Shown: positions 3,888 through 63,367, counted from the first letter of the stretch. The stretch is 64,000 nucleotides of DNA from Candidatus Nomurabacteria bacterium (GCA_023898525.1 CP060227.1:557634-621633); one strand, 5' to 3'. Made by a program: numbers and translations. Notes: generated by a model from the sequence alone, not told the origin.

Positions 3888-3904
3888 ACCAACAGCTGTA
3901 TTAA

Positions 3905-3939: not shown

Positions 3940-3947
3940 TTAAAAAA

Positions 3948-4162: not shown

Positions 4163-4212
4163 GGTAAAACCAAAAAGTTCGAACCTAGAAGGGTCCGAAC
4201 TTTTTTGGTTTT
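4163..4212. terminator. Long hairpin terminator just downstream of the RloC-like gene.
   Basis: aaaaccaaaaagttcgaac-ctagaagg-gtccgaacttttttggtttt: arms of about 19 bp with one bulge. Confidence 0.65.
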
Positions 4213-4213
4213 A

Positions 4214-6439: not shown

Positions 6440-6440
6440 G

Positions 6441-9486: not shown

Positions 9487-9489
9487 AGA

Positions 9490-11856: not shown

Positions 11857-11860
11857 AAAA

Positions 11861-12064: not shown

Positions 12065-12090
12065 AATTGCTAACTTAACACAAGTTTACA

Positions 12091-47155: not shown

Positions 47156-48253
47156 CTAACGATTCATCGGCATCACCAAATACCTTAAGGTATTGTCTGA
47201 CACACCATTTATCACGAGTGGTCGACCAATACCAGCAAAATGCATAACAATACTGTCATCAGAGATATGAGACAATGGCTCTATTAAATATTGCTGATTG
47301 AAGTTTAAGGATAGTTCTTCACCTTCAATTACAGCCTTAACAGTATCAGTAATATGCCCTACCTCGTTATTTTGTGAAGAAACAACAATATTACCATCAG
47401 TTAAAGACAGCGAAACTTGATGGAATTTATTTAAAAACACAGAAGTTTTCTTAAAAGCATTTAGGAGTTCACTTTTTAGCACCGTAACATGTGTAATGTA
47501 CTCTTTCGGTATTATCTGTTCATAATCTGGAAAAGACCCTGACACCAACCGAGAGGTTACGTATACCCCCTCAGAAACAAAATCCAAAGCACACTGGTTA
47601 TCGGTCACTGTTAAAACCGGATCATCTTCCAATAAATCACAAATACGAGCCAATTCAATCGCATTCTTTTGTGGCACCAAAAACGAGTGATCAAGCACCA
47701 CCCCTTTTTGCGGCACTCGCTTTTCCATTAAGCGAAAAGAATCGGTGGATACAAAAGTTAAAGAGTGTTCCCTTTTTTGCTGAACATAAACACTACCTAA
47801 CTCAGGCTTTATAGAAGACTGTGAAGCAGCAAAGGCGGTAGTTTTTATACCCGAAGCAAAAAGAGGTCTATTAACCTTCACTCCTCCACCCTCAAGGTGT
47901 CTTATAGTTGGAAATTCCTCGAAAGGAATTGACTTAATAGAAGTATTAGTTTGCTTTGATTCAATCAATAATACACCATCTTCGTCACGAAGGGTTATTT
48001 CTGATTGATTAATATACTGAATACTTTGCAGTAGAGTTGTCATCGGTACCGCTATTGTCCCAATTTCATTTATTTTACCTGGAATAGTAACTTCGATACT
48101 CAACTCCAGATTAGTAGCCTTGATGGATATGGTATCTGCCGTTGCATTAATTAAAGCACACTGCAAAACAGGTAGAGTCACATGCTTAGTGCTGATACGA
48201 CTGATGAGTTCCAGAGTTTTAATTAGTTGTGGATGAGGGGTTATTATTTCCAT
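47156..48253 (-). CDS. dnaN: DNA polymerase III beta subunit (sliding clamp).
   Basis: It is 365 aa with a three-domain clamp pattern. It lies downstream of dnaA. Confidence 0.9.
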   Translation of the reverse strand: MEIITPHPQLIKTLELISRISTKHVTLPVLQCALINATADTISIKATNLELSIEVTIPGKINEIGTIAVPMTTLLQSIQYINQSEITLRDEDGVLLIESKQTNTSIKSIPFEEFPTIRHLEGGGVKVNRPLFASGIKTTAFAASQSSIKPELGSVYVQQKREHSLTFVSTDSFRLMEKRVPQKGVVLDHSFLVPQKNAIELARICDLLEDDPVLTVTDNQCALDFVSEGVYVTSRLVSGSFPDYEQIIPKEYITHVTVLKSELLNAFKKTSVFLNKFHQVSLSLTDGNIVVSSQNNEVGHITDTVKAVIEGEELSLNFNQQYLIEPLSHISDDSIVMHFAGIGRPLVINGVSDNTLRYLVMPMNR

Positions 48254-48627
48254 ATTTAAATCATATTCTACTCTTTATTATTAGGGTTGTGGAAGTGTGC
48301 ATATCTCAAAAATATGTTGTATTTATAATCGTTTTTTATCAACAATACCTATTGGTGATAGTTGGTATCGTGTTTGAGAGTTTGGGATAAGGTGTGAATA
48401 TTAAGCTGGTGACTAAAAAGGCTAAAAATAATGTTGATAAGATGGTAGGCAAACCAACACTTTTTCCTAGTATAACACTGTCTTACTAACAGGTTTTCCG
48501 AGTCATAACCCAAAACATTTTTAAAGTTATTAACAAGGTAATTAACATGTGGTTGGTTAAGTTTTTATAAACAAATAACCCCAAGCACTAGTGGGGTTAT
48601 TTGTTTATATTAATTACTTTACTTCAT

Positions 48628-50034
48628 CTACTTAAGAAGCATCCTTATTTGGGTTATTTCTTCCTCCAGTTCGGAATTGGACTTTAGTTCTAGTTTTATT
48701 TTTTCACAAGAGTGGATCACGGTGGTGTGGTCGCGACCGCCAAGTTTTTTACCAATGGCTGGATAAGAGACTTGAAAATCCTCTCTTAGAATATACATGA
48801 TAATTTGTCTAGGTTTAACAATTTCTTTTCGTCTGGTTTTTTCATAAATACTAGATTGGTCTATATCAAAATATCGAGCCACTTTATCCACCACATCAGA
48901 AACTGCGAGAGTTTTTCTTGGTTTTGAACTGTTTTTAATTATCGACTTTACTTCATCTAATGATAGGGTTTTACCTAATAGTTGTGATTGGCACATGATG
49001 GTGTTTAATGCACCTTCCAGTTCCCGTATATTACCTTCGATTGTATAGGCTAGATGGTCTACTACATCGTCTGATAGTGTAATACTGTTTTGGGCTGCTT
49101 TAGCTTTCAAAATAGCGGCTCTTGACTCAAGGTCTGGGGCTGGTATGTCCACAATCATCCCTTGAGAAAAACGAGACAGTAATCTCTCTTCTAAACCAGA
49201 CAATAAAGCGGGGTGAACATCACTTGAAAACACTATTTGTTTATTGGTGTCGTGTAAAGCGTTAAACAAATGGAACAGCTCCTCTTGCGTTTTTTCTTTA
49301 TTGGCCAAGAATTGTACATCGTCCATTATTAAAACATCATACTGACGATATTTATCCTTAAAGCTATTAGCGGTGCCGCTTTGAAGTGAGTTGAAGTAGT
49401 CAACTGCAAAACGTTCGCTGGTAACATAGTATACTTTTTTACCAGTTTTTTTAACCTGATTACCTACTGCTTGGATAAGGTGAGTCTTACCGTGGCCGGT
49501 CTTACCGTAAATAAAAAGCGGATTATAAGCTATCCCTGGTCGTTCACTAACAGCTTTAGCGGCGGTATGGGCCAAGGCGTTGTAGGGGCCAATAACAAAG
49601 GTGTCAAAAGAATATTTTGGATTAAGGTTATCGCTTTTGTTTATATAATATTCTTCCAGCGGTAGGGCTGCGTTAACAGTCTGAGTTTTATTACTATCAG
49701 CTCTACGGTCAGTGCGCTGCACTACTTCATATTCAACACTGCGAACATAAGGAGTTAAATCCCTAAGAGTTTTAAGAATCATTGATTGAAATTTGTCTTG
49801 TAGCCAATCGCGAACAAAAACACTAGGTACCGCCAGACTAATCGTACCATCCTCTAGAGATAGAATGTATGTATCTCTAAACCAAGTCTTAAAATTGGCT
49901 GGAGTAATAGAGAGTTCAATTTTAACCAAAGCATCGTCCCACAACTTTTTTACATCTATATGTTCAGTGCGAACTATACTATTGGTTGGTTGTGGGTGTG
50001 AGATTTGGTTCATAATCAGAAGTGTATAACACAC
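48628..50034 (-). CDS. dnaA: Chromosomal replication initiator DnaA.
   Basis: The AAA+ Walker A is GKTGHGKTHL. Walker B is LIMDDVQFL. The sensors are present. The C-terminal DNA-binding domain is IGKKLGGRDHTTVIHSCEKI. The start is probably MNQISHP... Confidence 0.95.
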   Translation of the reverse strand: MCYTLLIMNQISHPQPTNSIVRTEHIDVKKLWDDALVKIELSITPANFKTWFRDTYILSLEDGTISLAVPSVFVRDWLQDKFQSMILKTLRDLTPYVRSVEYEVVQRTDRRADSNKTQTVNAALPLEEYYINKSDNLNPKYSFDTFVIGPYNALAHTAAKAVSERPGIAYNPLFIYGKTGHGKTHLIQAVGNQVKKTGKKVYYVTSERFAVDYFNSLQSGTANSFKDKYRQYDVLIMDDVQFLANKEKTQEELFHLFNALHDTNKQIVFSSDVHPALLSGLEERLLSRFSQGMIVDIPAPDLESRAAILKAKAAQNSITLSDDVVDHLAYTIEGNIRELEGALNTIMCQSQLLGKTLSLDEVKSIIKNSSKPRKTLAVSDVVDKVARYFDIDQSSIYEKTRRKEIVKPRQIIMYILREDFQVSYPAIGKKLGGRDHTTVIHSCEKIKLELKSNSELEEEITQIRMLLK

Positions 50035-50267
50035 TGCATTATACCCTCATTCTCAAAGCTGTAAAACCCATACGTACTTTTGAAGTAAAACCAATAACTT
50101 TTTTTAAAAATAAAAATGCAACTGTGTATAACCTGTGTATAAAATGTAATTAAAAATATACCACCCTACCCTCTTTTTTGTGACCTATACAACAAATCTA
50201 ACTAAGCTATTGAATTATTTATTTAATCATGTATAGTGTGACGGTAAATTACATTAGCTGAAATCAT
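50035..50267. promoter_or_regulatory. Candidate oriC / DnaA-box region between divergent dnaA and rpmH.
   Basis: The region is AT-rich. Two direct TGTGTATAA boxes (matching TGTGNAWAA) lie at 50123-50131 and 50134-50142, one helical turn apart. Degenerate boxes (TTATCAACA, TGTTGATAA) also occur in the dnaA-dnaN spacer at 48254-48627. Confidence 0.4.
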
Positions 50268-50417
50268 ATGAGTAAAAGAACTTATCAACCAAGCAAAAGA
50301 AAAAGGGCTACTACCCATGGTTTTTTGGTACGCAGCGCCACCCCTTCTGGAGCTAAGGTTTTACAAGCAAGACGTCGTAAAGGACGGGCACAACTAACGG
50401 TCAAAAAAGCTCGCTAA
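50268..50417 (+). CDS. rpmH: 50S ribosomal protein L34.
   Basis: It is not in the ORF track because it is shorter than 60 aa. My translation is [49 protein letters not shown], a classic L34. It lies upstream of rnpA. Confidence 0.85.
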
Positions 50418-50465
50418 GAGCTTTTTTGTTATATGAAATAACGTTATTATAATAATAGTTATTTT

Positions 50466-50792
50466 ATGTTAAAAAAAACCAGTCGCCTAAACTCTGCTTC
50501 CTTTAATACACTTTTAGCTCAAGGTAGAAGATTACATAATATGTATTCTACCGTCATTTACGCACCAGCCACCAGTTTTGCTTGTGTGGTGGTGGTTGGT
50601 AAGAAGATTTTTAAAAAGGCTCATGACCGCAATCGGTTGCGGCGACGTGTTTATGCAGTTATTAGTCGATTGGTTGCTGATAAAAAACCAACCGGTGCTT
50701 ATATTGTGTTGATAAAACCGAATATTAAGGAGTTGACGAAAAACGAAGTTATAGAGGTTATTAAAAAAGAAGTTGGACGAGTAATAAAATAA
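50466..50792 (+). CDS. rnpA: Ribonuclease P protein component.
   Basis: It is a 108-aa basic protein with KKAHDRNRLRRRVYA (the RNR motif). The rpmH-rnpA-yidC synteny supports the call. Confidence 0.85.
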   Translation: MLKKTSRLNSASFNTLLAQGRRLHNMYSTVIYAPATSFACVVVVGKKIFKKAHDRNRLRRRVYAVISRLVADKKPTGAYIVLIKPNIKELTKNEVIEVIKKEVGRVIK

Positions 50793-50808
50793 AGGTAGAA
50801 TAGTCACC

Positions 50809-51537
50809 ATGAGTTATATTTGGCATACATTTTTTTTCGACCCTGTTTACAACGGGTTAATATTTTTTATTGACATTATTCCTGGAGGTGATGTTGGGGT
50901 GGCGATTATCGCTACGGTGGCGGTAGTTAAGTTTATTTTGTTACCACTTTCTATCAAAGCGGCTAAAACGCAAAAAATAATGCGGGAAATTGAACCTAAG
51001 TTGCGAGAAATAAAAGAGAAGCACAAAGACAATAAAGAAGAACAAGCTAGGGCGATGATGGAAATTTATCGCGATGCTGGTATGAATCCATTTGCTAGTT
51101 TGTTTTTGGTTTTTCTGCAAATTCCGATCATTATTGCCCTTTACTTTTCGGTTTATAGTGGCGGCGGGGTAGCTTTACCGGAAATTAACACCGCTCTACT
51201 CTACTCTTTTGTGTCTACTCCCAGTTTGGTTGATATGAATTTCCTAGGCATGATTGATATATCTGGTAAGAGTGTACTATTGGCTGCTTTAGCGGGTGTT
51301 ACCCAATACTATCAGGTTAAACTGGCGATGCCTCAAATGGCCCCACGAGATCCTAATAAGGCTCCTGACATGAAAGAGGATATTATGCGCAATATGCAGC
51401 TACAAATGCGCTATGTTATGCCGGTCATTATTTTTGTAGTATCTTACGTTATATCAGCAGCGATTGCTCTTTACTTCTTTGTTAGCAATGTGGCAGCTAT
51501 CTTACAAGAATTACATATAAAAAAGCATCATCGGTAA
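50809..51537 (+). CDS. yidC: Membrane protein insertase YidC (short Gram-positive/Oxa1-like form).
   Basis: LLPLSIKAAKTQKIMREIEPKLREIKEKHKDNKEEQARAMMEIYRDAGMNP is the hallmark YidC C1-loop region. It has five TM segments. Confidence 0.85.
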   Translation: MSYIWHTFFFDPVYNGLIFFIDIIPGGDVGVAIIATVAVVKFILLPLSIKAAKTQKIMREIEPKLREIKEKHKDNKEEQARAMMEIYRDAGMNPFASLFLVFLQIPIIIALYFSVYSGGGVALPEINTALLYSFVSTPSLVDMNFLGMIDISGKSVLLAALAGVTQYYQVKLAMPQMAPRDPNKAPDMKEDIMRNMQLQMRYVMPVIIFVVSYVISAAIALYFFVSNVAAILQELHIKKHHR

Positions 51538-51597
51538 AAAGTATTGATAGTAAAATAAAAAAACCACCACAATCGTGGTGATTTTTTTATTATGTTT

Positions 51598-52347
51598 TTA
51601 CTGATTGTATGGATCGTAAGTACAGGCAATTTTAGTATTATCGGTGATATCGCCCCAGGTGTTGGTTGGGTGGAAAGCGGTACCTTTTAAATCTGCACAG
51701 GCGGCTTCTTGAGCGCTACAGTCGTAATTAGGCACCATATAAGTTACACCGGATTTAGGGTCTGTAAAAGGAACGTTACCGTCCCCTGGAACACATCCAA
51801 ATACTTTAGTGGTCAAAGACACATCGCTGGATTTGCGGATACACCACCAACTACCAGCTTCGCTGGTTGGTTGTGCTGTGCCACCTATATCTTCACAAGC
51901 AGCTTTACTGCTAACAACAGATAAGGTTTCTCCAGCACCTGCATTGTAAGCCGGTTCTGCTCCCAGTCTTTCAGCTTGAGTTGGGCCGTTGAGTTCGTTT
52001 GGTGGTGCTAGAAATATCTGTGTATTAGCTAGTTGTGGGTTAATGGTAGTGAGGACTAGAACGGCCGAGATAACAATTAATAAACCAAGGGTGGCGCCCC
52101 AAATATCACTCTTAGCTTCTTGTTTGGAGGTAACAATATCAGACAGCATCCACCTAAGCCCGGCGATGATGATCTTTATAACCGCCAGTAAAGCAGCGAC
52201 AGCGATTGAAAGGGCGTATAATCTATTTATATAAGTGCCGAAGTCGGTGTTTGGATCAACTCCAATACCGACCAGTTGTTGGTATTGAGCTAAGGTTATG
52301 GAAGGTAGCAATATAATTGCCAGTATAAATAGTGTTTTATAATTCAT
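51598..52347 (-). CDS. Secreted protein with a VirB2/TrbC-pilin-like N-terminal half (signal peptide plus two TM helices) and a Cys-rich C-terminal extension. It is the last gene of the T4SS-like operon.
   Basis: The signal peptide is MNYKTLFILAIILLPSITLA. Two hydrophobic helices (LYALSIAVAALLAVIKIIIAGL and IWGATLGLLIVISAVLVLTTI) are separated by a charged loop. The last 140 aa contain 8 Cys. Confidence 0.3.
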   Translation of the reverse strand: MNYKTLFILAIILLPSITLAQYQQLVGIGVDPNTDFGTYINRLYALSIAVAALLAVIKIIIAGLRWMLSDIVTSKQEAKSDIWGATLGLLIVISAVLVLTTINPQLANTQIFLAPPNELNGPTQAERLGAEPAYNAGAGETLSVVSSKAACEDIGGTAQPTSEAGSWWCIRKSSDVSLTTKVFGCVPGDGNVPFTDPKSGVTYMVPNYDCSAQEAACADLKGTAFHPTNTWGDITDNTKIACTYDPYNQ

Positions 52348-53530
52348 ACATCCAAAGAGTGTTATCGTTCTTGTTTATAAAGTATACTGCTTTTTCGCTG
52401 CTTCCGATACCTAGGTTTGTCACATCAATCTCTCTTTGACTTTCGGTAAAAGTATCAACCAATAAGTTGGCAGTTAAATCGGTGCTGGAAATTAACCAAA
52501 GAGAATCCTTGAAATTGGTCTCCCCTTGGTACCAGCTGTCCGGAAGGTTGATTGATTGATTGGTGCTACTGTCATAAGCACAGATAAAATTAGAAGTGTT
52601 TTCGGCGGTAATACATTTTTCCGGCAAGAAACTTACTGGAAGAGGAAAGTTTGCTTCGGTGTTAGATTCTCTGTTATAGATAAAAGCTCTATATTCAGTA
52701 CCAGTGTTTTTACTATAAGCAATAATTTTATTATTAGCTAAGGCGGTAAAACCGGCCCCATCGGCTGGTAAACGATTTATTTTTCCAGCCTTTATTTCCG
52801 CTAAGTAACCTTCCAAGATCGAAGCTGGCTTTGGGTACATGTAATGGGTGGCTGAGCTGTCACTTCCCCATTCAATAATCGCTTCACTTATTGGTAAGTC
52901 AAAGATGGTTTTATCGGTCTCGGTTTTTAAATTATAACTATGCCCTGTTAAACCAGTACTTTCCTTCACTGAATATAAAAGTTCTTGCCCATCATTACTA
53001 AGAGTAAAACTGTCGGCTGAAGTTGTGATTTGCTCCGTTGTAAGATCACTACTGGTGCTTATTTCACCAACAGTTAAGGTCGTGTTTTTGGAATTTCCCG
53101 GTGTACCCATCACCACATAGTCACCAGCTGGAGACACCATCGCGGTAGTAGCTCCTACTATAGTGGTACCAGAGACCCTAGCTTCCTCACCAGTTTCTAA
53201 ATTTAAGCTATAGATGTGACCAGTTCCCATTTCTACATAATAAATCGTTGGTAGCTCAGTAGTAGTAGTTCCTTGGTCGATTTCTCCCCAACCAGCAACC
53301 ATTTTAGTGGTTAGTTGGCGTAATTTTGGACGATTAGTGTTTACAATTGGGGTTTCTTCTTCTAGATTTTGACCTTGGTTGTTATCAATCACTTCTTCAC
53401 TACCTAGTCCAAAATTAGCATATATGTCATCAGCTGACTTGGGTGTACCGAAGAATAATAAATATGCCCAGATAATGATTAATATAAAAATAATGATGGC
53501 GCCGACAATAATGAAGATTGGTTTATTCAT
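52337..53530 (-). CDS. Membrane-anchored extracytoplasmic protein (Thr/Ser-rich, beta-rich), T4SS-operon component.
   Basis: It has an N-terminal TM segment (IFIIVGAIIIFILIIIWAYLLFF) and sits within the operon. Confidence 0.45.
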   Translation of the reverse strand: MNKPIFIIVGAIIIFILIIIWAYLLFFGTPKSADDIYANFGLGSEEVIDNNQGQNLEEETPIVNTNRPKLRQLTTKMVAGWGEIDQGTTTTELPTIYYVEMGTGHIYSLNLETGEEARVSGTTIVGATTAMVSPAGDYVVMGTPGNSKNTTLTVGEISTSSDLTTEQITTSADSFTLSNDGQELLYSVKESTGLTGHSYNLKTETDKTIFDLPISEAIIEWGSDSSATHYMYPKPASILEGYLAEIKAGKINRLPADGAGFTALANNKIIAYSKNTGTEYRAFIYNRESNTEANFPLPVSFLPEKCITAENTSNFICAYDSSTNQSINLPDSWYQGETNFKDSLWLISSTDLTANLLVDTFTESQREIDVTNLGIGSSEKAVYFINKNDNTLWMYEL

Positions 53531-53539
53531 ACACTATAC

Positions 53540-54499
53540 TTAGAAATTTACCTTAAAGCTACCTTTGGCTCCTTGTAAAAAGTTGGTTGTGCTGTTGATT
53601 CGGAAACTAACATTCGAAACGCCAGATGATCCTTGTCTAGCCAAGGTTACTTCATAAGGGTTGTTGCCGGCACTCGGACTTCTTTGTCCATCAATCTTCC
53701 ATTCCAGAACATCGGGACGGTTATAAGTGTTTATGTCTACAAAGTAAGGTTCGGCTTGAACGCTAACGCTGTTACCAATCAAATTTAAGGTCCTATCAAT
53801 TGGTATATGCTTTACACCGTATAAAGTATTGGTTTCGTAGAATAGCATTTTTGGATCACCGTAAACGAGTGGAATAGTGCGTTTGGCAACTAGTTCACCG
53901 GCTAGGTTGGTGATGGTGACAGTCACAACATTTTGGTAGCCTGGTGGAACCTTGAGGGCTACTTTATAATTTCCACGAAGTGATCCTCCAGCCAATACAG
54001 TGTCGTTTAAAGACCAGTTGTAAATATAATTTTCAGAGTCACTCAAACTACTGTTGATAAGAGCGGTTAGGTTAATAGTGCTTTCTAGTGTGGGAATGGC
54101 ACGGCCTTGGTAAAAGCTTGGTGTTTTAGTTTGTGGTTCTATAACAATATCTAGGTAGAATGGTCTAATCACTCTTTTAGCTGAAAAAATAATCCCCTCA
54201 AAGGTTTTGGCAGATACTTCTATGGTGGTAGGTTGGCCAATATCTTTGGTGGTAAAATCAACAGTTTTTTGATTATTGGCTTCGGGTACAGCTTCACCAT
54301 CTATTTTCCAGCTGATACCAGTAATGTTTAGTGGTACAGAGTAATCATCTACTGTAGCGGTGTTTTTAGAGAACGGCTTTGTATATTCATCTTTTAGAGT
54401 GATACTTAAATTAGTTTGTTGATTAACACTGAAATTGCTTTGGGCGTAGGTAAAACTTATGGGCAGAAAAATAGTGAAAATAAATATTAGGTATCTCAT
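53540..54499 (-). CDS. Secreted protein (Sec signal peptide), T4SS-operon component.
   Basis: The signal peptide is MRYLIFIFTIFLPISFTYA-QS. Confidence 0.45.
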   Translation of the reverse strand: MRYLIFIFTIFLPISFTYAQSNFSVNQQTNLSITLKDEYTKPFSKNTATVDDYSVPLNITGISWKIDGEAVPEANNQKTVDFTTKDIGQPTTIEVSAKTFEGIIFSAKRVIRPFYLDIVIEPQTKTPSFYQGRAIPTLESTINLTALINSSLSDSENYIYNWSLNDTVLAGGSLRGNYKVALKVPPGYQNVVTVTITNLAGELVAKRTIPLVYGDPKMLFYETNTLYGVKHIPIDRTLNLIGNSVSVQAEPYFVDINTYNRPDVLEWKIDGQRSPSAGNNPYEVTLARQGSSGVSNVSFRINSTTNFLQGAKGSFKVNF

Positions 54500-54546
54500 G
54501 GTTATTATAATAACAAACTATAGGCAAAAAAAAGCATCTTTAGACA

Positions 54547-55329
54547 CTATCTTGGGTATTTCCAAATAGCAGCAATCCAAAAGCCGATCCATGGAAAAAG
54601 ATTTAGTAGCGGTACAGCATAACCAACCATAGCCAGCAAAAGCGTACCGTATTTCAGGCTAGAGTGACTACCTGCTAATGGTCTGACTCGAGCTAAGGTG
54701 TATTGTATATAAATAGTTGATATAGTTCCTGCTCCAATGGCTAGTACTATAAAATAACCAGCTAAGAAAAGGCTGGCGGCAATATCACTGGCTCCGAACA
54801 TGTTGGCTATCCCTGCTATGCTGCTAATAACAAAATTTTTAGTTTTTTCCCATAGACCCTGATCTTCATTGTTTTGGCCAGCAAAATCACCTGATAAGCC
54901 GGCGGCAGCAGCTAGGCCAACCAAAGACACAAAGGCAAAGAAAAGTTGTGCCATATAAACCCAGCCCACCCAAGAAGCAATGGCAGCGGTAGCTCTATTG
55001 GCACGTAGGCGACGGGCCGGAGATATATCTTTAGGTTGTTCAACTTTTATTTTAGATATATAGTTATCGTCATTAACGGGTGCTATTGTATTAACTTGAG
55101 ACCGATAGCTTGTTACCAATGTGTCCCCCACTTGCTGTGTACCGATTTTTTTTGGTTGTCTGATGGTGGTGGAGTTTAAACCCTGGCTTTTATGAGTCAG
55201 GTTAAATTTCTGGTCGGTAGTTGGATGGTTTGGTTCAGTTGCTTGATCCAAATATTCCCAATCATTATTAATACGCTGCTTATCAATTCGGCGCGCGTTT
55301 CTGATTGGTTGTGCGTTTGCTTCAGCCAT
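54547..55329 (-). CDS. Membrane protein (hydrophilic N-terminus, 4-5 C-terminal TM segments), T4SS-operon component.
   Basis: Hydrophobicity pattern only. It lies immediately downstream of the VirB4 gene. Confidence 0.45.
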   Translation of the reverse strand: MAEANAQPIRNARRIDKQRINNDWEYLDQATEPNHPTTDQKFNLTHKSQGLNSTTIRQPKKIGTQQVGDTLVTSYRSQVNTIAPVNDDNYISKIKVEQPKDISPARRLRANRATAAIASWVGWVYMAQLFFAFVSLVGLAAAAGLSGDFAGQNNEDQGLWEKTKNFVISSIAGIANMFGASDIAASLFLAGYFIVLAIGAGTISTIYIQYTLARVRPLAGSHSSLKYGTLLLAMVGYAVPLLNLFPWIGFWIAAIWKYPR

Positions 55330-55347
55330 AGCTTTATTCTAACAGGT

Positions 55348-57141
55348 TTACTGTCTAGATAACTGTAGTTCTTCCCGTGCCTTTTTGATTTGGAGAAGTT
55401 GAGAAGGGTCTGAAGTAATGATCTGGTCTTCGGTGTATGAAGCAATAACCTTGATGGCGACATGCTTTAAACCGGCGAAAAATATCCCCTCCCCTACATT
55501 CGATTCAAGAAGTAAGAATTTTTCTTCATCAGTTAAGTTGAAGGTTTTTTGAATATTATCAATCGCGGTGGCTGATTGTTTCATTAGGAACTGAATAGAA
55601 GAGTTGGTGATCATTGGTACTCCATAAGGTGACCGCAAAAAGTCATCAACATCCTGAGTAATGGTGGCAATACCTAAGTAATATTTACGTCCTCGCTTGG
55701 CTAGGCTAAATAGAAAGGAAGCGGTGTCTTCAGATTTCATCATCCACCAAGCCTCGTCAATAACCAATAGTCGCTTAACCATCCTTCGTCTAACGGAGCT
55801 CCAAATGAAGTTGGTAATAATGTACATGGCAATGGTTTTAAGCTCGTCTTCCATGTCACGTAGTGAAAAGACGACAAATTTTTGGTTGATGTCGACGTTG
55901 GTAGGTTTGTTCATAAAACCTGACCAAGTACCAGAGGTGTATTTTTGGAGGCGGGTAATCAGTGAAGCACTACCATCCATACCAGCTAGTACCATCTCAA
56001 AATCAGACAAAAGCGGCGGTTCTTGTTCGGAAAAGTCTGTATCACCGGTGATATCTTTAAGGGCATAGGTTTCCTGAATAGCTAAGTCCAAGATAGTCTC
56101 TTCCTCTGGTGCGAGGCCGCCAAGCATTAGTCGGAAAAGACCGATCAGTTCAATGATGTGAGCCCTGAGTACGTCTCTAGGATCTTCGTCTGCTTGGGGT
56201 GGTGGTAAGTCAAAAGGATTGATGTGGTGGTCAGATGAAAGAGAAATGTTAAAAAAGCGACCGCCGGTAGCTTCGGCTAAGTATTCATATTCTCGCTCTG
56301 GATCCAGTACAATAACTTCGGTACCAAACATTAAAGAGCGCAAAATTTCCAGCTTTAAACCGTATGATTTACCAGCACCCGAAGTGGCAAAGGTAACTGA
56401 ATTATAGTTAGTGAGAGAAAAACGATCAAAAAGGACCAGTGATGAGTTGTGGCGATTTATACCGTAAAGGATTCCGGTGTCTGAGGTGAGGTCAAAAGAA
56501 GTGAAGGGAAAGAAGCTGGATAGAGGAGATGAATTAAATTTGCTGTGAACCAAGAGTTTGTCACTGGCGGTAGGAAAGATACTTTGAATACCCTGTTCTT
56601 GTTGAAAGAGGGCGGGTTTTAGATAGATTAATCTAGAGTCAAGAATACCCTTTACATCATTTTCGGTTTTGTTTAAAGTTGCTTCATCTTTTCCATAAAT
56701 AGTAACGTAAAAACCAACATTAAAGAGTTTTTCTTCAGCTTGCTGTAAGCGGTCTCTTAGTTCTTCAAGGTTTCGGTAAGCAGCCTCGAGTTGCGGGTCA
56801 CGCACCTCCCCTTTTTCGGCCTTAATATTAATCTGACTTTGTACCTCCGCTACCTTTTTTTGAAACTTTTTTAGACTGTCAGCAGTATCAATGGGGTGAA
56901 TGAAAATAGAAACATCAAGTTCTTTATCCATATTTAATACTGGTTCCATCCATCCGGCGTTGAGATAGTGAGGATAAGCCACTGCGTACAAGACCCTAAC
57001 ATCCACTCCGCTTAAGTTTATGCCACGTGGGGTGATATTGACAGCCGAAGGAGCTACAACATCAACCAGGGTTAGCAACTGGTCACTAACAGAAGGCTCG
57101 TTGGATTTTTTTTGTGGTTTAAATTGATCAAAGATACCCAT
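55348..57141 (-). CDS. virB4: VirB4/TrbE/CagE-family type IV secretion ATPase, C-terminal ATPase portion.
   Basis: Walker A is FATSGAGKSYGLK. Walker B is LLVIDEAWWMM. The conserved IATITQ region of VirB4/TraC ATPases is present. It lies in frame with, and 6 nt downstream of, 57148..57789. Confidence 0.8.
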   Translation of the reverse strand: MGIFDQFKPQKKSNEPSVSDQLLTLVDVVAPSAVNITPRGINLSGVDVRVLYAVAYPHYLNAGWMEPVLNMDKELDVSIFIHPIDTADSLKKFQKKVAEVQSQINIKAEKGEVRDPQLEAAYRNLEELRDRLQQAEEKLFNVGFYVTIYGKDEATLNKTENDVKGILDSRLIYLKPALFQQEQGIQSIFPTASDKLLVHSKFNSSPLSSFFPFTSFDLTSDTGILYGINRHNSSLVLFDRFSLTNYNSVTFATSGAGKSYGLKLEILRSLMFGTEVIVLDPEREYEYLAEATGGRFFNISLSSDHHINPFDLPPPQADEDPRDVLRAHIIELIGLFRLMLGGLAPEEETILDLAIQETYALKDITGDTDFSEQEPPLLSDFEMVLAGMDGSASLITRLQKYTSGTWSGFMNKPTNVDINQKFVVFSLRDMEDELKTIAMYIITNFIWSSVRRRMVKRLLVIDEAWWMMKSEDTASFLFSLAKRGRKYYLGIATITQDVDDFLRSPYGVPMITNSSIQFLMKQSATAIDNIQKTFNLTDEEKFLLLESNVGEGIFFAGLKHVAIKVIASYTEDQIITSDPSQLLQIKKAREELQLSRQ

Positions 57142-57147
57142 AGTGTT

Positions 57148-57789
57148 TTATTTGTTAAAAGTCGGAGCTGATCCGGTGGCGTCAATTGGATTATAAATGT
57201 GATAAAAAAGTTCAACCAAATCATCACTGCCTAAAGCAGTGGTTCTAACTCCAATTCTGCCTAATCCCTGTTCTACTACAGCCACTCTTTGCTCAAGCTG
57301 AACTCTCTGTTCCTCAAAACGCATCTCAGTGGAGTTATTGCTAGAGGTTTTTGGTTTAGTCGAGAAAAGTGAGGTAATGCCTTTGGTTATATTGGTCGGA
57401 GTTGGTGAGTAAGGTATAACCACAAAGAAGTTTTTACTCATGATGTCAACCTCGGTGGTAAAGGTGTTTATGAATTCTATGTATTCACGCAACTGAATTC
57501 GCATCAGATCATTATCTTGCTTTGATTCTCTGGTTTTAAGTAGTTCCAGATAGGGTTCGATATTTAGACGTCTGGATTGCACGTAGATTTGCAGAGAAAA
57601 ATCAAGGGTGTTAAGGAAGGTTTGGAATTGTTGTAGTATCGCCTGTTGTTCATCGTTTGACTTCAAAGCAAAGTTAATTGATGTGGCAAGTAGAATGGTA
57701 CATAATTGACCAGATTTTAATACTAAAATCCCGTCTTTTACATCTTTAATAGCAACGAATTGTTGGGTGGCGGCTGTAGTTTTAGGCAT
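57148..57789 (-). CDS. VirB4 N-terminal domain, encoded as a separate ORF.
   Basis: FVAIKDVKDGILVLKSGQLCTILLATSINFALKSNDEQQAILQQFQTFLNTLDFSLQI resembles the conserved N-terminus of Gram-positive VirB4 homologs (Tn916 Orf16/PrgJ/TcpF type). It ends ...PTFNK-TAA-AAC-ACT-ATG-GGT... so a single stop separates it from the ATPase ORF in the same frame. Confidence 0.5.
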   Translation of the reverse strand: MPKTTAATQQFVAIKDVKDGILVLKSGQLCTILLATSINFALKSNDEQQAILQQFQTFLNTLDFSLQIYVQSRRLNIEPYLELLKTRESKQDNDLMRIQLREYIEFINTFTTEVDIMSKNFFVVIPYSPTPTNITKGITSLFSTKPKTSSNNSTEMRFEEQRVQLEQRVAVVEQGLGRIGVRTTALGSDDLVELFYHIYNPIDATGSAPTFNK

Positions 57790-57790
57790 A

Positions 57791-58243
57791 TTATTCTTTC
57801 TTTTGGATAGCTTCTAATTCTAAGCGACGGGCTAATGAGGTAGTGCTTTGACGGTTGGTTGGTTGTCCGAGATTTTGACTTTGACGTGGATCCGGATAGT
57901 TAACTGTATTAGGTGTAAACATGTCTTTGTGGATCACGTCTTCTTTTTGTCTCCACAAATATAGTTTTGTACTAGATAGATAGGTAAATATAGCTTCAAG
58001 AAAAAAGGAAAATGGACGGTTGTTAACCGGGTAAAAGGCTAAGGCTATAGCTAAAAGAGCTAATGGTAGTCCAAGAATAAGAAATAGTATTTTATTTATA
58101 AAAAATAAAACTACACCCATTCCGACTCCTCCACCAAGATAGAGAAACTGTCGCCAAGTTAACGGCCCGAAGATTTTGTCTTCAATATCAATAAATTGTG
58201 GTACTTCAAATCGCATAACACACGTACAAAATACATTATACAC
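57791..58243 (-). CDS. PrgI/TcpE-like small membrane protein (the VirB3 analogue of Gram-positive-type T4SS).
   Basis: MRFEVPQFIDIEDKIFGPLTWRQFLYLGGGVGMGVVLFFI matches the PrgI-family consensus (F..P.F.D.EDKI.G.LT.RQ) followed by two TM helices. The true start is probably MRFEV... Confidence 0.55.
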   Translation of the reverse strand: MYNVFCTCVMRFEVPQFIDIEDKIFGPLTWRQFLYLGGGVGMGVVLFFINKILFLILGLPLALLAIALAFYPVNNRPFSFFLEAIFTYLSSTKLYLWRQKEDVIHKDMFTPNTVNYPDPRQSQNLGQPTNRQSTTSLARRLELEAIQKKE

Positions 58244-58286
58244 TTTATATGAAAAAAGCAGTGTTGGTTTTGTGTATAGATGTTAA

Positions 58287-58325
58287 GACAAACACTCTGC
58301 GCCTACGGCGCAGAGTGTTTGTTGT
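58287..58325. terminator. A perfect 16-bp hairpin inside the T4SS operon, between the 166-aa gene and the PrgI-like gene.
   Basis: gacaaacactctgcgcc-tacg-gcgcagagtgtttgttg. On the transcribed (minus) strand the T-run is weak. It could be an attenuator, a partial terminator or an RNA-processing site. Confidence 0.4.
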
Positions 58326-58826
58326 CTATTGATTGGCGTACCCGATAGGTGGATTTGGTGGGCTGGGCGGCGGAGGTGGTGTTGTGTTATTTACAGATCC
58401 GGAAGCGACAAATTGGGTGGCGGCGGTACTTTGGTGGTTGGACTGTAGTGTTTTAGTGGGGTCGTTGTGTGTCTCTGTTTTTTCCATATTTGATGGATAT
58501 GGTTTTGGGTAACTACCCTCCTCAGCTTGATAAGCCACATTGTCTGTCAATTTCTTTATAAAATCCAATATTTTTATAGACATAACCTGAGTAGTATCAC
58601 TATCTACATCTAATTTTGTTAACTCATCAGGTATATCCTTGTCGGAAAAAATTCCTAACAGCTTATTTGAAGTTATAACAATCAACTTCATTTTCAAATT
58701 ACTATACTGTGTATTGCTTATTAGACTATCTATAAATAATCCTATTTTATCAGAATCAATTATATCTCGTAAACCTTGATCTGCATTACTGTAAGCTTCT
58801 ATAAATTTTTCAAAAGTATTTTCCAT
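58326..58826 (-). CDS. Hypothetical protein with a Pro-rich C-terminus (PPPPPSPPNPP), T4SS-operon component.
   Basis: ORF and operon position only. Confidence 0.4.
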   Translation of the reverse strand: MENTFEKFIEAYSNADQGLRDIIDSDKIGLFIDSLISNTQYSNLKMKLIVITSNKLLGIFSDKDIPDELTKLDVDSDTTQVMSIKILDFIKKLTDNVAYQAEEGSYPKPYPSNMEKTETHNDPTKTLQSNHQSTAATQFVASGSVNNTTPPPPPSPPNPPIGYANQ

Positions 58827-58829
58827 ATT

Positions 58830-60833
58830 TTATGCGAAGAATTGTGCGGCGTAGGTTGAATTTCCGTTTGCCCATTTAACCCATGGATTATTTGGTCCTA
58901 ACGCGACAGTTGGTACAGTTGTACTTGCAATACCTAAGTTTGCCGACAAGGCATTTCTAATTTCGGTTCTATCAGTGGTTGATATACCATTCTTAATTCT
59001 TTCTTCGAGCATAGCGGGAGTTATATGATCAAACATACTCTGTTGCTTGAAGACATCCACCGGCATCTTTCCGATATCCTTAACATTTTTGCTAAACATT
59101 GAAGATTTTTGATCAACCGTGCTAGCGTTTGGGTGTGAATATAGTAGTGCTCCTGTAGAATTCTTTCCTGCACCAAGGACATTACCGTGAGTTGCAATAT
59201 TAGTATAAGCTTCATTTCTGGTGTTTTTAATATCTTGAATTTGCTGTGATGAGAATTTACCTGTTTTTTCTAGATTGCTTATATCGTCATCTGATAGGTG
59301 CATGGCCACTTTCTGATTGTTTAGTTTTTCAAATCCGAGCTTTTCTTTTTCAATTCCAGTCATTTTCCTAATAGTCTTTCCTAACTCATCAAAAGCATCT
59401 GATAGGTCTGTGGCCAACTTGGTTTTATCGTCAAGGGTTTTGTTATATGTTTCAAATTGTCTTTTACGTTCAAGCTCTCCTTCTGTTTGGTTTGCTCTAG
59501 CTTGTGTTGATTGCCTGTATTCTTTTTCCTTCAGGTTTGTGGTTCCTGTACCAAGTTCAGCGTTTTTTAGTTTCTCTGCGCCGCCTCTAGCTGCTCTATC
59601 AACCCAGTTCCATCTTGATATAGTTCCAGCTAAACCACTTCGTGTCTGTAGTTCGTTCAATCTTCTTTCTCTATTTGCACCATAAGCATTTGCTGCCATA
59701 CGTGCTCCTGCTCTAGCTGGATAAGTTATGCCAAAAGTCACACTACCAGCTGCGCGACGAGCACGACCACTTAAGTGTTTTCCAAAAGTGACCATGGCAT
59801 TACCACCGGTCATACCAATCTTTTGTCCTACAACAATAGCTGCCATTAGGAAAGCAATCATAATTAGGAAGTAAGGTACAGTGGTGGCAAATGCTTCAGT
59901 GGCAGTGGCGACATTGTTGCTGGCAAAAGCGGTAGCAAAAGAGTTTGACTTGGCCAGAACTGAAAATTCATTAAAGACCACATAAGCAAAATAAAGCATT
60001 AAAATATAGGCGGGAGCATAAAAAGCTCGGGCCAAAAAATTCTGCCAATACTCAGTTGAGTATCTCTGCAGATTTGGAAAAACCCAACCCAGAAACATAA
60101 TCGGAGAAAGAATCATGTATAGATTTAATACCACAAATCTTATGATTAATAATATGGCACCAGCAAAGAAAGCAAAAGCTGTCACCATGAATAGAAAGAG
60201 GGTTCCGAAGATATAAGTGTAACCATTACCATTACTGGATGAAAAAGCGGTAAGGTCACCGTCAAATATGCTAGTAAGACCTAATCTCTCTACAAATTTT
60301 CCAGCCGCTTCGTATTCACCTGCCCCGTTTGAAAATGCACCAGCCACCTGCATAGCAGCAATGTTGGAGAAATCAACAATAAATTTGGTGATAAATAAGC
60401 TAAAGTTCACCAACAGCGCCGCTAGAATGATGTGGACCAACATTTTTTTGGCGCTACTGTCACCTACGTTTAATATCATTTTAAAACCGATATAAACTAG
60501 ACCGAAGATAAAGGTTAGGTTAAAAATGTCGCGAACGGTTTGCCAGAGATTATCAACGGCAAAGCCAAGTCCAGTATTAATAAATAGGTCACCAAATCCT
60601 ATAACAAAGGTGGTAATGGCAGTATCGAGAAGTTTTCCAGCCATCCATACTAGAAAGCCAAATACTCCATTAACTACTCCCCACAGTAGGTCTTGAAACC
60701 AACTAGACCCCAATTTTTCATCTGCCCCACCATCGCCAACTGCGAAAGCCAAAGTAGGAAGAATCAATAGCAAAAAAGCTCCAATTCCTATTAAGAGTCC
60801 TGTGTACTTTTTATTCGCTATGAAGTTTGTCAT
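58830..60833 (-). CDS. Large polytopic membrane protein, VirB6/TrbL-like candidate (first gene of the T4SS-like operon).
   Basis: It has about 8-9 TM helices over 350 aa, followed by a hydrophilic coiled-coil-like tail. Its position is as expected for a VirB6 analogue. Confidence 0.45.
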   Translation of the reverse strand: MTNFIANKKYTGLLIGIGAFLLLILPTLAFAVGDGGADEKLGSSWFQDLLWGVVNGVFGFLVWMAGKLLDTAITTFVIGFGDLFINTGLGFAVDNLWQTVRDIFNLTFIFGLVYIGFKMILNVGDSSAKKMLVHIILAALLVNFSLFITKFIVDFSNIAAMQVAGAFSNGAGEYEAAGKFVERLGLTSIFDGDLTAFSSSNGNGYTYIFGTLFLFMVTAFAFFAGAILLIIRFVVLNLYMILSPIMFLGWVFPNLQRYSTEYWQNFLARAFYAPAYILMLYFAYVVFNEFSVLAKSNSFATAFASNNVATATEAFATTVPYFLIMIAFLMAAIVVGQKIGMTGGNAMVTFGKHLSGRARRAAGSVTFGITYPARAGARMAANAYGANRERRLNELQTRSGLAGTISRWNWVDRAARGGAEKLKNAELGTGTTNLKEKEYRQSTQARANQTEGELERKRQFETYNKTLDDKTKLATDLSDAFDELGKTIRKMTGIEKEKLGFEKLNNQKVAMHLSDDDISNLEKTGKFSSQQIQDIKNTRNEAYTNIATHGNVLGAGKNSTGALLYSHPNASTVDQKSSMFSKNVKDIGKMPVDVFKQQSMFDHITPAMLEERIKNGISTTDRTEIRNALSANLGIASTTVPTVALGPNNPWVKWANGNSTYAAQFFA

Positions 60834-61188
60834 GTTGGATATTGTGGTGGTTTACCGGAAAGTCAGGCTACTGCTAACGGTTCTTCTTGTGTAGTTGATC
60901 TTATCTATTATATAACTACCGGTTGCAAAAAGAAGTCTAAATATCACCACCGGTAATAAGTCAGGATTGTTATAGTGTTTTGAATTCAAAGCGGCTCCCA
61001 TGAGTTTATAAAAGATGAATAACCTTACTGTAACGTTATCATATTGATAATTAGCATTTATTTCCTTATACACACTCTTACGTGCCCAGTTAAGGTAAAC
61101 AGATAGTATGTAAAGCTGACTTGACATTAAAAAGTTTGGTATATTATCATGATACTGCAAGTTAATTAATATTAAATCTTACCTAATC

Positions 61189-61683
61189 ATGAATCCAAAT
61201 AACCAAAAAACAGGACATTATGTTTCTATTACCCTAATAATATTTATACTAATTATTATTGTTGGTTTTGCTGCTTCAAAGCCGGCGGCAACCACGGAAT
61301 TGGTTCAACAAGATAATTTTGAAAAAGCTGCGACTCAAACTAATAAGGTGGAGAATAAACCAGCTACAGATTCTGAGGCGGGTGTGTATAAGGCATACTC
61401 AGCTTCAGCGGTGGCTAATAGTAATGCAGAAAACATCGTTCTGTTTTTTTATGCCACTTGGTGCCCAAGTTGTCGGGCTTTAGATGCTGAAATTAGTAGT
61501 CATTTAAGTAGCATTCCGGTTGGAACAGAAATCTATAAAGTAGATTACGATACAGCAACTGAGCTCAAGAAAAGGTATGGCGTTACCACTCAACATACCT
61601 TGGTTCAGATTAAGAATGATGGCACTATGGTTAATAAGTGGAGTGGTGGTGACTTAAAACACCTCTTAACTTCATTAAAATAA
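61189..61683 (+). CDS. Membrane-anchored thioredoxin-fold protein (TlpA/ResA-like).
   Basis: It has an N-terminal TM anchor and a WCPSC active site. It lies upstream of a CcdA-like gene. Confidence 0.8.
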   Translation: MNPNNQKTGHYVSITLIIFILIIIVGFAASKPAATTELVQQDNFEKAATQTNKVENKPATDSEAGVYKAYSASAVANSNAENIVLFFYATWCPSCRALDAEISSHLSSIPVGTEIYKVDYDTATELKKRYGVTTQHTLVQIKNDGTMVNKWSGGDLKHLLTSLK

Positions 61684-61684
61684 A

Positions 61685-63367
61685 ATGACACTACTTATTA
61701 TTTCTTTTTTAGCTGGTGTTTTAACGGTTTTAGCGCCGTGTGTTTTGCCGCTGTTGCCGGTCGTGATCGGTAGTAGTGTCGGTGCCAGAAGTCGGGCTAC
61801 TCCTTATATAGTGATTGGTTCGCTAGCTTTATCAATCTTGCTTTTCACCTATCTGCTTAAAGCCTCTACAGCACTCATCAGTATACCGGCTGTTTTTTGG
61901 TCGTATTTATCGGGTGGTATTTTGGCTGGTTTTGGTTTGATCCTACTCTTCCCTGTTCTTTGGGAGTCTCTACCTTTTGTAGCTAAAGCTAGTCGTGATG
62001 CCAATCAGCTTATGAGTACCGGCTATCAAAAAAAGAGTGTGTGGGGTGATGTGCTTATTGGTGCTTCTCTCGGTCCGGTCTTTTCTACCTGTAGTCCAAC
62101 TTATTTTGTAATTCTCGGTACTGTTTTGCCAGCCAGTTTTTGGCTTGGTACAGTCTATTTAATTACTTATCTTATTGGTCTTATTTTAGTTTTGGCTTTA
62201 ATTGCTCTATTGGGGCAACGTTTGACCGGTAGACTTAACCTACTCGCTGACAACCACGGCAAGTTTAAACGAGGACTGGGAGTAATTTTTCTTATCGTTG
62301 GTTTAGCTATCATTTCTGGTTTGGATAAAAAAATAGAAGCAGCCATTCTTGATACTGGCTATTTAGATATTTCTAAATTTGAACAAAAAATCTTAGATTC
62401 AGCCACCGAGACATCGATTGTTCCAGCTGGTAATAGTTTGTCTGTAATAGATGAACAGACCACGAAACCAGCAACTGCTGTCGAAAATATTCCCAAACAT
62501 CTGCAAAAAGCTTTTCCTAAAACAGACTGGTCAAAAAATAACCCCAACATAGCTAATGCAATTTCTGGTGGGCCTGGAAAAGACGGTATTCCTGCGATTG
62601 ATAATCCGACCTTTGTTCCAATCTTTGAATTTTCCCACAGTGATGAAACGCAGGCGATTGTGGTGTTTGGTGAAAATGATATCAAAGTCTATCCCTACAA
62701 CATCCTTAATTGGCACGAAATCGTAAATGATGAAATTGATGGTAAGCCTATATTAATTGCCTTTTGTCCGCTGTGTTGGAGTGCGATTGTTTATGACCGT
62801 ACTTTACCGGATGGAAAGACACCAACTTTCGGTGTTAGTGGCAGTTTGCTTGAAAGTAATATGATAATGTACGACCGTTTAACTGAGAGTCTTTGGCAAC
62901 AAAGTACTGGTAAAGTTTTGGCGGGTACGTATTATCCGGCTGAGCTTACAGCTCTTCCCTTTCAGCTCTTAACAATTGGTGAGATCAAAAAACTTTATCC
63001 ATACTCTATGCTGCTTAGTGAAGATACTGGCTACTCGCGTGACTATTCCAGGGACCCATACGTGGGTTACGAAACTAACAGCCAATTTGTTTTCGATCCA
63101 AGTTCTCTGGATAATAAGTTTCCACCCAAAACTATCATGGTTGTCTTTAGGGCGGGTGATGTTACGGTGTCAGTACCTTGGTTAAAACTGCGCGAAGTGA
63201 GCTCGGTTGTTGAAATTATTAACAATATTAAGTACACTCTGACAGTCACCGATACTGGTGAATTGATTATTGTTGACGAGTCGGGAGCTGTTCAACCTTT
63301 CTATTTTGAAATGTGGTTTAGCTTTGCCGTTCAGCACAGTGATCAGATTCACGTTATTGAATTATAA
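61685..63367 (+). CDS. ccdA: CcdA/DsbD-type thiol:disulfide transmembrane electron transporter fused to a C-terminal DUF3179-like soluble domain.
   Basis: LAPCVLPLLPVVIG and the second Cys helix (VFSTCSPTYF) match the CcdA topology. The C-terminal domain of about 300 aa shows a DUF3179-like pattern (ILNWHEIVND...FGVSGSLLESNMIMYDRLTESLWQQ). Confidence 0.65.
   Translation: MTLLIISFLAGVLTVLAPCVLPLLPVVIGSSVGARSRATPYIVIGSLALSILLFTYLLKASTALISIPAVFWSYLSGGILAGFGLILLFPVLWESLPFVAKASRDANQLMSTGYQKKSVWGDVLIGASLGPVFSTCSPTYFVILGTVLPASFWLGTVYLITYLIGLILVLALIALLGQRLTGRLNLLADNHGKFKRGLGVIFLIVGLAIISGLDKKIEAAILDTGYLDISKFEQKILDSATETSIVPAGNSLSVIDEQTTKPATAVENIPKHLQKAFPKTDWSKNNPNIANAISGGPGKDGIPAIDNPTFVPIFEFSHSDETQAIVVFGENDIKVYPYNILNWHEIVNDEIDGKPILIAFCPLCWSAIVYDRTLPDGKTPTFGVSGSLLESNMIMYDRLTESLWQQSTGKVLAGTYYPAELTALPFQLLTIGEIKKLYPYSMLLSEDTGYSRDYSRDPYVGYETNSQFVFDPSSLDNKFPPKTIMVVFRAGDVTVSVPWLKLREVSSVVEIINNIKYTLTVTDTGELIIVDESGAVQPFYFEMWFSFAVQHSDQIHVIEL

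Follow-up and report, generated by a model that had tools for sequence, protein, structure and literature searches.

We analyzed a 64,000-nt stretch of a Candidatus Nomurabacteria genome (GCA_023898525.1, CP060227.1:557634-621633), here called the window, in which positions 51598 to 60833 constitute a genuine nine-gene type IV secretion operon. The locus probably represents, in its Paceibacteria form, the chromosomal type IV secretion system (T4SS) of Patescibacteria, a system derived from the MPF-FATA lineage, and would serve contact-dependent exchange with a host rather than conjugation. A preliminary description made from the sequence had proposed a chromosomal T4SS of Gram-positive flavor at this site; profile searches, structure prediction, and synteny over 80 species agree with that proposal. 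The operon is inherited vertically, at a fixed position beside yidC, rnpA, and dnaA.

Operon layout and translocon core

All nine open reading frames (ORFs) lie on the minus strand. ORF calling reproduced the positions first given for them and bore out their reading as a tightly packed, co-directional set, in which neighboring genes are at most 82 nt apart (109 nt if the PrgI gene begins at its ATG) and, at the other extreme, overlap by 11 nt. For comparison with relatives, one genome per species was scanned; at least 585 loci encode a VirB4 relative, and the best 80 were used. Their records are titled as lineages of the Patescibacteria/candidate phyla radiation (CPR) or as metagenome-assembled genomes (MAGs) of an unclassified "bacterium," and they show 67 to 94% identity. 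Since positional orthologues of every operon gene occur in 30 to 79 of the 80 loci, none of the nine is a chance ORF. Identical copies of two of the proteins are present in databases, labeled as hypothetical proteins (H6779_02840 and H6779_02845).

The identity of the system is carried by its VirB4-family ATPase of monoderm MPF-FATA type (597 amino acids [aa]; positions 55348 to 57141). This protein scored 347.7 bits against NF045971, the NCBIfam CD1110 family (cutoff, 325), and matched PF19044 with an E value of 1.7e-26. Its Walker B motif is LLVIDE, and its Walker A motif, read off the translation, is ATSGAGKS. The best solved relative is the C-terminal domain of VirB4 from the Firmicute Thermoanaerobacter (PDB 4AG5; E value of 9e-41); Gram-negative TrwK matched with an E value of just 1e-5. 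The neighboring TrsD-like protein (213 aa; positions 57148 to 57789) aligns solely to the N-terminal part of VirB4 models (NF045975, E value of 4e-10; NF045971, E value of 1.8e-7). It also matches the TrsD/TraD model NF041427 (E value of 2.8e-7), with all of its NCBIfam scores falling below the cutoffs, and has a public precomputed match to PF26593 (TraC-like). A VirB4 N-terminal domain encoded separately from the ATPase had been proposed previously and is upheld. We ruled out a frameshift artifact as the origin of this split because the arrangement of 213 plus ~600 aa is kept in 79 of the 80 species.

The PrgI-family protein, a VirB3 analogue (150 aa; positions 57791 to 58243), matches PF12666 at 41.9 bits (cutoff, 27), so that PrgI and VirB4, the two assignments on which the preliminary description had staked its interpretation, both score above their curated cutoffs. 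The public gene call for PrgI starts at the ATG at 58216 and gives a 141-aa protein with PF12666; this ATG is likely the true start. PrgI is the membrane hairpin that docks VirB4, and its orthologue is present in 77 to 78 of the 80 loci.

The first gene of the operon (positions 58830 to 60833) encodes a VirB6/TrbL-like polytopic channel protein of 667 aa. By hydropathy, it has an N-terminal signal or anchor and at least five hydrophobic segments within residues 1 to 336, followed by a hydrophilic C-terminal region of ~330 aa ("extended VirB6"). The window copy matches TrbL (PF04610) below the cutoff (E value of 3.5e-4; 20.8 bits against 25.9) and has a weak public precomputed match to PF19590 (TrbL_3). 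The VirB6-like assignment made earlier gains its support at the family level: 13 of 44 orthologues match PF04610, the best with an E value of 2e-8, and a polytopic topology agrees with the assignment. An orthologue was found in 62 of the 80 loci.

A partial, weak similarity of VirB4 to the DNA import ATPase CedB (E value of 1.1e-10, 40.8 bits) raises the question of whether the machine works in reverse, like ComB or Ced, and brings in host DNA or nucleotides. Patescibacteria are devoid of de novo nucleotide synthesis, and because competence is dispensable in Southlakia epibionticum, the T4SS has been put forward as the alternative route (PMC11665869); in the class ABY1, the T4SS genes adjoin comF, recG, and radA, according to a recent survey (Quinonero-Coronel 2025, Microb Genom; PMC12102498). 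However, the CedB match stands at 40.8 bits against a cutoff of 700 and is restricted to the shared P-loop region, profile scans revealed no DNA-binding, nuclease, or ComEC-like gene in or adjoining the operon, and import has no experimental support in any Patescibacterium. We regard nucleic acid import as an unlikely primary function.

The pilin and the accessory proteins

The last gene (positions 51598 to 52347) encodes a VirB2-like T4SS pilin of 249 aa. The window copy matches PF18895 at 19.7 bits (E value of 9e-4; cutoff, 26.6), and 56 of the 58 members of its family match PF18895, while 15 match TrbC/VirB2. An AlphaFold2 model (predicted local distance difference test [pLDDT] score of 80 overall and >90 for the C-domain) contains a signal peptide, a helical hairpin (residues 36 to 72 and 75 to 102), a linker, and a beta-rich C-domain (residues ~135 to 245) with six cysteines. 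Together, the family matches and the modeled hairpin support the pilin-like reading that this gene had first been given. Neither the family profile, searched against solved structures, nor the model, searched with Foldseek against the PDB as a whole two-domain query, found a relative (nothing below an E value of 0.2 in the latter case).

The two parts of the pilin differ sharply in conservation. Across 57 relatives, median identity is 74% in the N-domain, which contains the hairpin, and 20% in the C-domain, whose length is variable and whose cysteine count is even in every case (6 to 10). The family is a mosaic. Its signal peptide and hairpin are near invariant, with an LVGIPGV motif conserved after the AQ cleavage site, and its Cys-rich C-domain is hypervariable in both sequence and length, so that total length ranges from 198 to 401 aa.

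The five proteins that were initially unassigned (the pilin and the proteins of 166, 260, 319, and 397 aa) are all conserved, lineage-specific components. The claim that half of the components have no recognizable family held for the 166- and 260-aa proteins; folds could be assigned to those of 319 and 397 aa. The 319-aa protein (positions 53540 to 54499) has a signal peptide ending in AQ, followed by three repeats of ~100 aa. Its family profile matches the immunoglobulin (Ig)-like domains of phage T4 Hoc over two stretches (E value of 3.3e-5), and three tryptophans spaced ~100 aa apart (W64, W162, and W267) are invariant. Judging from this profile, the repeats look Ig-like in fold. Orthologues are encoded in 72 of the 80 loci.

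The 397-aa protein (positions 52337 to 53530) is predicted to be a membrane-anchored extracellular beta-propeller. The AlphaFold2 model (mean pLDDT score of 88.5; predicted template modeling score of 0.79) consists of an N-terminal transmembrane (TM) helix (residues 3 to 27), a disordered linker (residues 39 to 61), and the propeller. Foldseek retrieved beta-propellers from the PDB with E values of ~3e-9, and the family profile matches TolB with an E value of 4e-5. An invariant pair of cysteines, Cys306 and Cys317, is consistent with an extracytoplasmic location. The propeller is present in 67 of the 80 loci. As the only bitopic candidate, this protein was also considered as a VirB8/TcpC analogue by fold, a candidacy that the modeled beta-propeller ruled out.

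The two remaining proteins lack a database family. In the small soluble protein of 166 aa (positions 58326 to 58826), a helical N-domain of ~100 aa precedes a disordered tail rich in proline, and hydropathy shows no hydrophobic segment; it has no match in Pfam, NCBIfam, or the PDB, even as a profile. It was considered as an ORFan because tblastn returned no orthologue, and this was rejected when an iterative hidden Markov model (HMM) recovered its family at the identical position, between VirB6 and PrgI, in 68 of the 80 loci. Because the HMM finds a positional family that tblastn misses, the protein is real yet fast evolving, a lineage-specific component invariably placed between VirB6 and PrgI. 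In many orthologues, the Pro-rich linker is followed by short conserved end motifs, RTMxxD... and DPYREP; the window copy has no DPYREP tail. The membrane protein of 260 aa (positions 54547 to 55329) combines a disordered, variable cytoplasmic N-region with approximately three TM segments and a conserved P..N.FPW motif. It matches no family in Pfam or NCBIfam, and its own family lies directly downstream of VirB4 in 30 to 45 of the 80 loci. Searches of the nine proteins against Pfam and NCBIfam found no hydrolase family.

An operon with a pilin of this kind might build only a host-binding filament, with VirB4, VirB3, and VirB6 serving pilus assembly and nothing being translocated. The pilin's conserved core and hypervariable, disulfide-rich outer domain are what would be expected of a host recognition surface, the Ig-like and propeller proteins are extracellular partners in the same operon, and the scanned neighborhood contains no coupling protein. 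In addition, T4SS pilins are highly expressed in cultures of parasitic Patescibacteria; in Patescibacteria-methanogen enrichment cultures, they figured among the highly expressed genes of unknown function for which structures were predicted (PMC10936435). However, type IV pili are already available to this genome for adhesion (PilB-like ATPase, positions 39227 to 40960), and a working translocon would explain at least equally well why VirB4, VirB6, and PrgI are so extremely conserved. A device for adhesion and nothing else is, in our estimation, improbable; adhesion and translocation are mutually compatible roles.

Inheritance, neighborhood, and operon boundaries

Synteny across CPR relatives, which the preliminary description had suggested examining, proved to be extensive. 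The order VirB6, small protein, PrgI, TrsD, VirB4, (membrane protein), Ig-like protein, propeller/pilin, yidC, rnpA, dnaA, dnaN, PBP1a is found in ~50 to 60 of the 80 species, and the only variations are a swap of the last two operon genes and the occasional loss of the membrane protein. Identity to the window proteins was compared over the 50 loci that contain all marker genes. The medians were 70% for VirB4, 62% for DnaA, 54% for TrsD, 50% for YidC, and 41% for DnaN, and VirB4 was more highly conserved than DnaA in 36 of the 50 loci. Conserved order and a VirB4 better conserved than DnaA indicate a vertically inherited core system and not a mobile element; a constraint on VirB4 greater than that on DnaA likewise implies that the system belongs, in its behavior, to the core machinery of the cell rather than to its accessory traits.

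The operon ends beside core genes. Beyond it lie yidC, rnpA, dnaA, dnaN, a DUF721-like gene, PBP1a, ruvC, yebC, ruvB, and a PilB-type ATPase gene; yidC-rnpA-dnaA-dnaN spans positions 47156 to 51537, and dnaA is 1.6 kb from the operon end. Cumulative GC skew reaches its minimum at ~47 to 49 kb, which places the operon at the replication origin. DnaA boxes numbered 25 over the window against 19 expected, a nonsignificant difference, and boxes with one mismatch form a loose cluster at positions 48228 to 50715. On the opposite side are a thioredoxin gene and a CcdA-like/DUF3179 fusion gene, so both flanks are core genes, as had been stated. This second flank adjoins the T4SS in none of the 80 relatives, and its proximity to an operon rich in disulfide-containing exported proteins may be a coincidence.

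These findings bear on whether the locus is a conjugative element or the remnant of an integrative and conjugative element (ICE), moving DNA by means of a relaxase and a type IV coupling protein (T4CP) encoded elsewhere. The machinery descends from monoderm conjugation systems, and, in PMC12102498, VirD4-like T4CP homologues are described as common elsewhere in Patescibacteria genomes, together with 109 relaxases in 103 genomes. On the other hand, the same survey reports just 15 relaxases near virB4 among 2,474 virB4 genes. In ~50 to 60 species, the locus holds a fixed place at the origin with core genes on both sides, its base composition equals that of the host genome (operon GC of 0.38 to 0.415, as in the rest of the window), and its VirB4 surpasses DnaA in conservation. 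The window showed no sign of an integrase, relaxase, T4CP, repeat signature, or flanking tRNA; its sole tRNA is 18 kb away from the operon. On synteny, composition, and the lack of an integrase, relaxase, or T4CP in the scanned ORFs, we rejected a mobile element or ICE in place, and we consider the version with distant transfer genes very improbable.

The scan for relaxase, T4CP, and integrase families (Pfam), which found none in the window ORFs searched, covered all ORFs of at least 300 aa outside the operon, by Pfam or by eye (PBP1a, DnaN, and DnaA), together with smaller flanking ORFs; those of 120 to 299 aa between 1 and 38.7 kb were left out. On the VirB6 side, the view comprised 3.2 kb of the window and ~0.8 kb from an 8.6-kb public contig. 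The earlier statement that no relaxase, VirD4, or integrase occurs within 10 kb stands for the scanned window ORFs and, on the VirB6 side, applies to ~4 kb.

The region upstream of VirB6 has been rearranged in this genome. In 46 to 50 of 57 related loci, four additional co-directional genes precede VirB6, namely, uvrD, ksgA, a gene for a 300-aa membrane protein, and a gene for a ~535-aa protein, whose end is 6 nt from VirB6; in related locus L030, the last two occupy positions 3628 to 6073. None of the four is in the window. The ~535-aa family has a conserved, Cys-containing N-domain of ~370 aa, which has no match in Pfam or the PDB. The genome studied here encodes three paralogues of this family elsewhere, of 783 to 880 aa (H6779_03920 is one of them); two match a right-handed beta-helix family, and the third gave a weak, subthreshold pectate lyase match (E value of 0.0037). 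Another public contig (locus L083, positions 9088 to 12352) carries a copy identical to one paralogue; there, it is part of a uvrD-ksgA-300 aa-783 aa block with fusA-tuf-S10 downstream. Because the block is found there, a rearrangement directly upstream of VirB6 has detached it.

The synteny breaks in the 355 nt of intergenic sequence that separate VirB6 from the divergent thioredoxin gene (positions 60834 to 61188). By its position, this region is the presumed promoter region of the operon; a search of its minus strand for sigma-70-like sites found none above chance. The AT-rich spacer also contains a 102-aa ORF (positions 60852 to 61160, minus strand), called as a 91-aa gene on the public contig, whose translation is of low complexity and which looks spurious. 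At the other end, a terminator-like hairpin with flanking T-runs on both strands (positions 51563 to 51580), identified by consensus match only, sits where yidC and the pilin gene converge and is shared by both. It is likely the operon end and was the only positionally sensible candidate in a terminator scan whose counts over the region were not above chance.

Several observations concern the wider window and the taxonomy of the relatives. The plus-strand stretch at positions 61189 to 63367 encodes the thioredoxin, which is membrane anchored, followed by the 560-aa fusion, in which a polytopic N-half, CcdA-like by eye, is joined to DUF3179. A PilB/GspE-type ATPase with T2SSE and MshEN domains is encoded at positions 39227 to 40960 (plus strand), ~10 kb from the T4SS operon, indicating that the genome also encodes machinery of the type IV pilus or T2SS-like kind. 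RTX calcium-binding repeats and a weak match to Peptidase_M23 mark a 944-aa protein (positions 26326 to 29160, minus strand; ~22 kb from the operon), which is possibly a secreted cell wall hydrolase or effector. Type I restriction-modification genes (HsdR, HsdM, and HsdS), followed by an AAA_13-family ATPase gene, occupy positions 4214 to 11856 on the minus strand. The source is a Candidatus Nomurabacteria MAG, which belongs to the Paceibacteria and not to the Saccharibacteria. Many third-party MAGs with a Paceibacteria-type locus (e.g., L003, L005, and L009) are titled "uncultured Candidatus Saccharibacteria bacterium." In VirB4, DnaA, and synteny, these match Paceibacteria, Kaiserbacteria, and Nomurabacteria genomes, and their titles look generic or wrong.

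Function and comparison with known systems

The reading that we favor is a machine for contact-dependent exchange between the cell and its host. Going by established T4SS biology, VirB4 would form a hexamer, with its N-domain supplied in trans, and would dock at the membrane via PrgI and VirB6 to give a translocon. It would pull the signal peptidase-processed pilin from the membrane and polymerize it into a filament or conduit across the cell wall. Parts of an extracellular scaffold or adhesin would be supplied by the three-Ig protein, which is secreted, and by the anchored beta-propeller, while the pilin's hypervariable, disulfide-bonded C-domain would decorate the filament and touch the host surface; these two proteins and the variable head are most likely the parts that span the wall and contact the host. 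Such a machine might either export effector proteins or take up material from the host.

Several points weigh against host exchange as the function. The roles given to the Ig-like, propeller, 166-aa, and 260-aa proteins derive from conserved position and predicted location only, and the nine proteins include no VirB8-like or VirB1-like signature. The window's own VirB6 and pilin both score below the Pfam cutoffs. No substrate, effector, or coupling protein was identified in the window, and with ~4 kb seen beyond VirB6, a distant T4CP or relaxase in the 1.09-Mb genome is possible. The evidence for essentiality comes from another class, the Saccharimonadia (PMC10633639). Finally, a 2024 perspective calls the role of the Patescibacteria T4SS "completely unknown," no function having been demonstrated, and floats effector delivery or nucleotide uptake (PMC11665869).

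A more specific version of host exchange can be put forward only tentatively: the Paceibacteria T4SS would have its own extracellular host recognition module, in which the variable-head pilin, the Ig protein, the propeller, and the beta-helix proteins set the host range. The pilin core may polymerize and display its disulfide-bonded C-domain of ~110 to 180 aa along the filament as a swappable receptor-binding head. The three-Ig protein and the propeller may replace the missing VirB8 and cell wall-spanning parts, and the ~535-aa family, with its three beta-helix/pectate lyase-like paralogues in this genome, could provide a tip adhesin or a secreted substrate. If this is true, variation in the pilin head and the beta-helix proteins encodes host range in a large, uncultivated class.

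Patescibacteria may account for a quarter of the diversity of bacteria, and hardly any have been cultivated. Their relaxase-less T4SS is essential in the sole species tested, and its function is an acknowledged important problem. The locus described here introduces no new principle; it offers a clean and complete example of the Paceibacteria system beside the origin, from a MAG whose largest contig is ~1.09 Mb. What is new are the two accessory fold assignments, the constant-core/variable-head pilin, the relocated upstream genes, the quantified core gene-like constraint, and the taxonomic correction. The nine-gene parts list and the variable pilin head offer experimental handles and a candidate determinant of host specificity.

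Among known systems, Helicobacter pylori ComB and archaeal Ced are likewise relaxase-less, T4SS-derived machines that serve the physiology of the cell itself. The window system has weak P-loop similarity to CedB, and none of its proteins matched ComB- or Ced-specific partner families in Pfam or NCBIfam. The conjugative MPF-FATA systems (pGO1 TrsC/TrsD/TrsE, pCF10 PrgH/PrgI/PrgJ, and CTn2) share with it the CD1110-type VirB4 and the PrgI family, as well as a VirB6-like protein and the lack of an outer membrane core complex; the TrsD/VirB4 split of pGO1 is the split seen in the window. Unlike them, the window cluster has no relaxase, T4CP, VirB1-like hydrolase, VirB8-like protein (PrgL/TcpC), or PrgB-type adhesin, and it has a VirB2-like pilin, which is absent from Gram-positive conjugative systems. 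It is also chromosomal and vertically inherited, whereas the conjugative systems are mobile plasmids or ICEs.

The T4SS of S. epibionticum ML1 (SEML1_0006 to SEML1_0019) is the only member with genetic evidence. In a transposon sequencing study, the T4SS and its pilins were essential for epibiotic growth, comEC competence was dispensable, and the cluster lacked relaxase and coupling proteins (Wang 2023, Cell; PMC10633639). A 2025 review describes such systems as the first T4SS on which the survival of the carrying bacterium itself depends and notes their potential to make pili (PMC12857230). Both systems are of monoderm type and have pilins and no recognizable relaxase or coupling protein in the cluster, and the low locus tag numbers of the S. 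epibionticum genes suggest that they, too, are origin proximal. S. epibionticum belongs to the Saccharimonadia; its six small pilins are divergent and encoded as an array, and essential peptidase and lysozyme genes lie downstream of virB4. The window, in contrast, encodes a single pilin, whose variable C-domain is large, no operon hydrolase, and the pair of propeller and Ig-like proteins.

The closest counterpart is the Patescibacteria clade of T4SS as set out in PMC12102498. There, VirB4 occurs in 2,417 of 3,035 Patescibacteria genomes, nearly always within one clade of MPF-FATA, and is accompanied by TrsD, PrgI/VirB3, VirB6, and VirB2-like pilins and almost never by a relaxase. Relaxase-less systems are reported for most Patescibacteria classes, with the T4SS genes lying near dnaA, dnaN, rnpA, and ksgA in Paceibacteria and other classes. 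In the sections examined, that paper makes no mention of the propeller, the Ig-like protein, or the C-terminal domain of the pilin. The window locus shares the FATA-descended VirB4, the adjacent TrsD-like protein, PrgI/VirB3, and the VirB2-like pilin, to which its VirB6-like protein, a family-level assignment, may be added, as well as a chromosomal cluster with no relaxase or T4CP beside dnaA, dnaN, and rnpA (and ksgA in relatives). Nothing essential is different. The uvrD-ksgA-300 aa-~535 aa block is detached here and lies elsewhere in the genome. The operon thus encodes a system of a published kind, a relaxase-less T4SS whose composition and dnaA-proximal position are the same as those already described.

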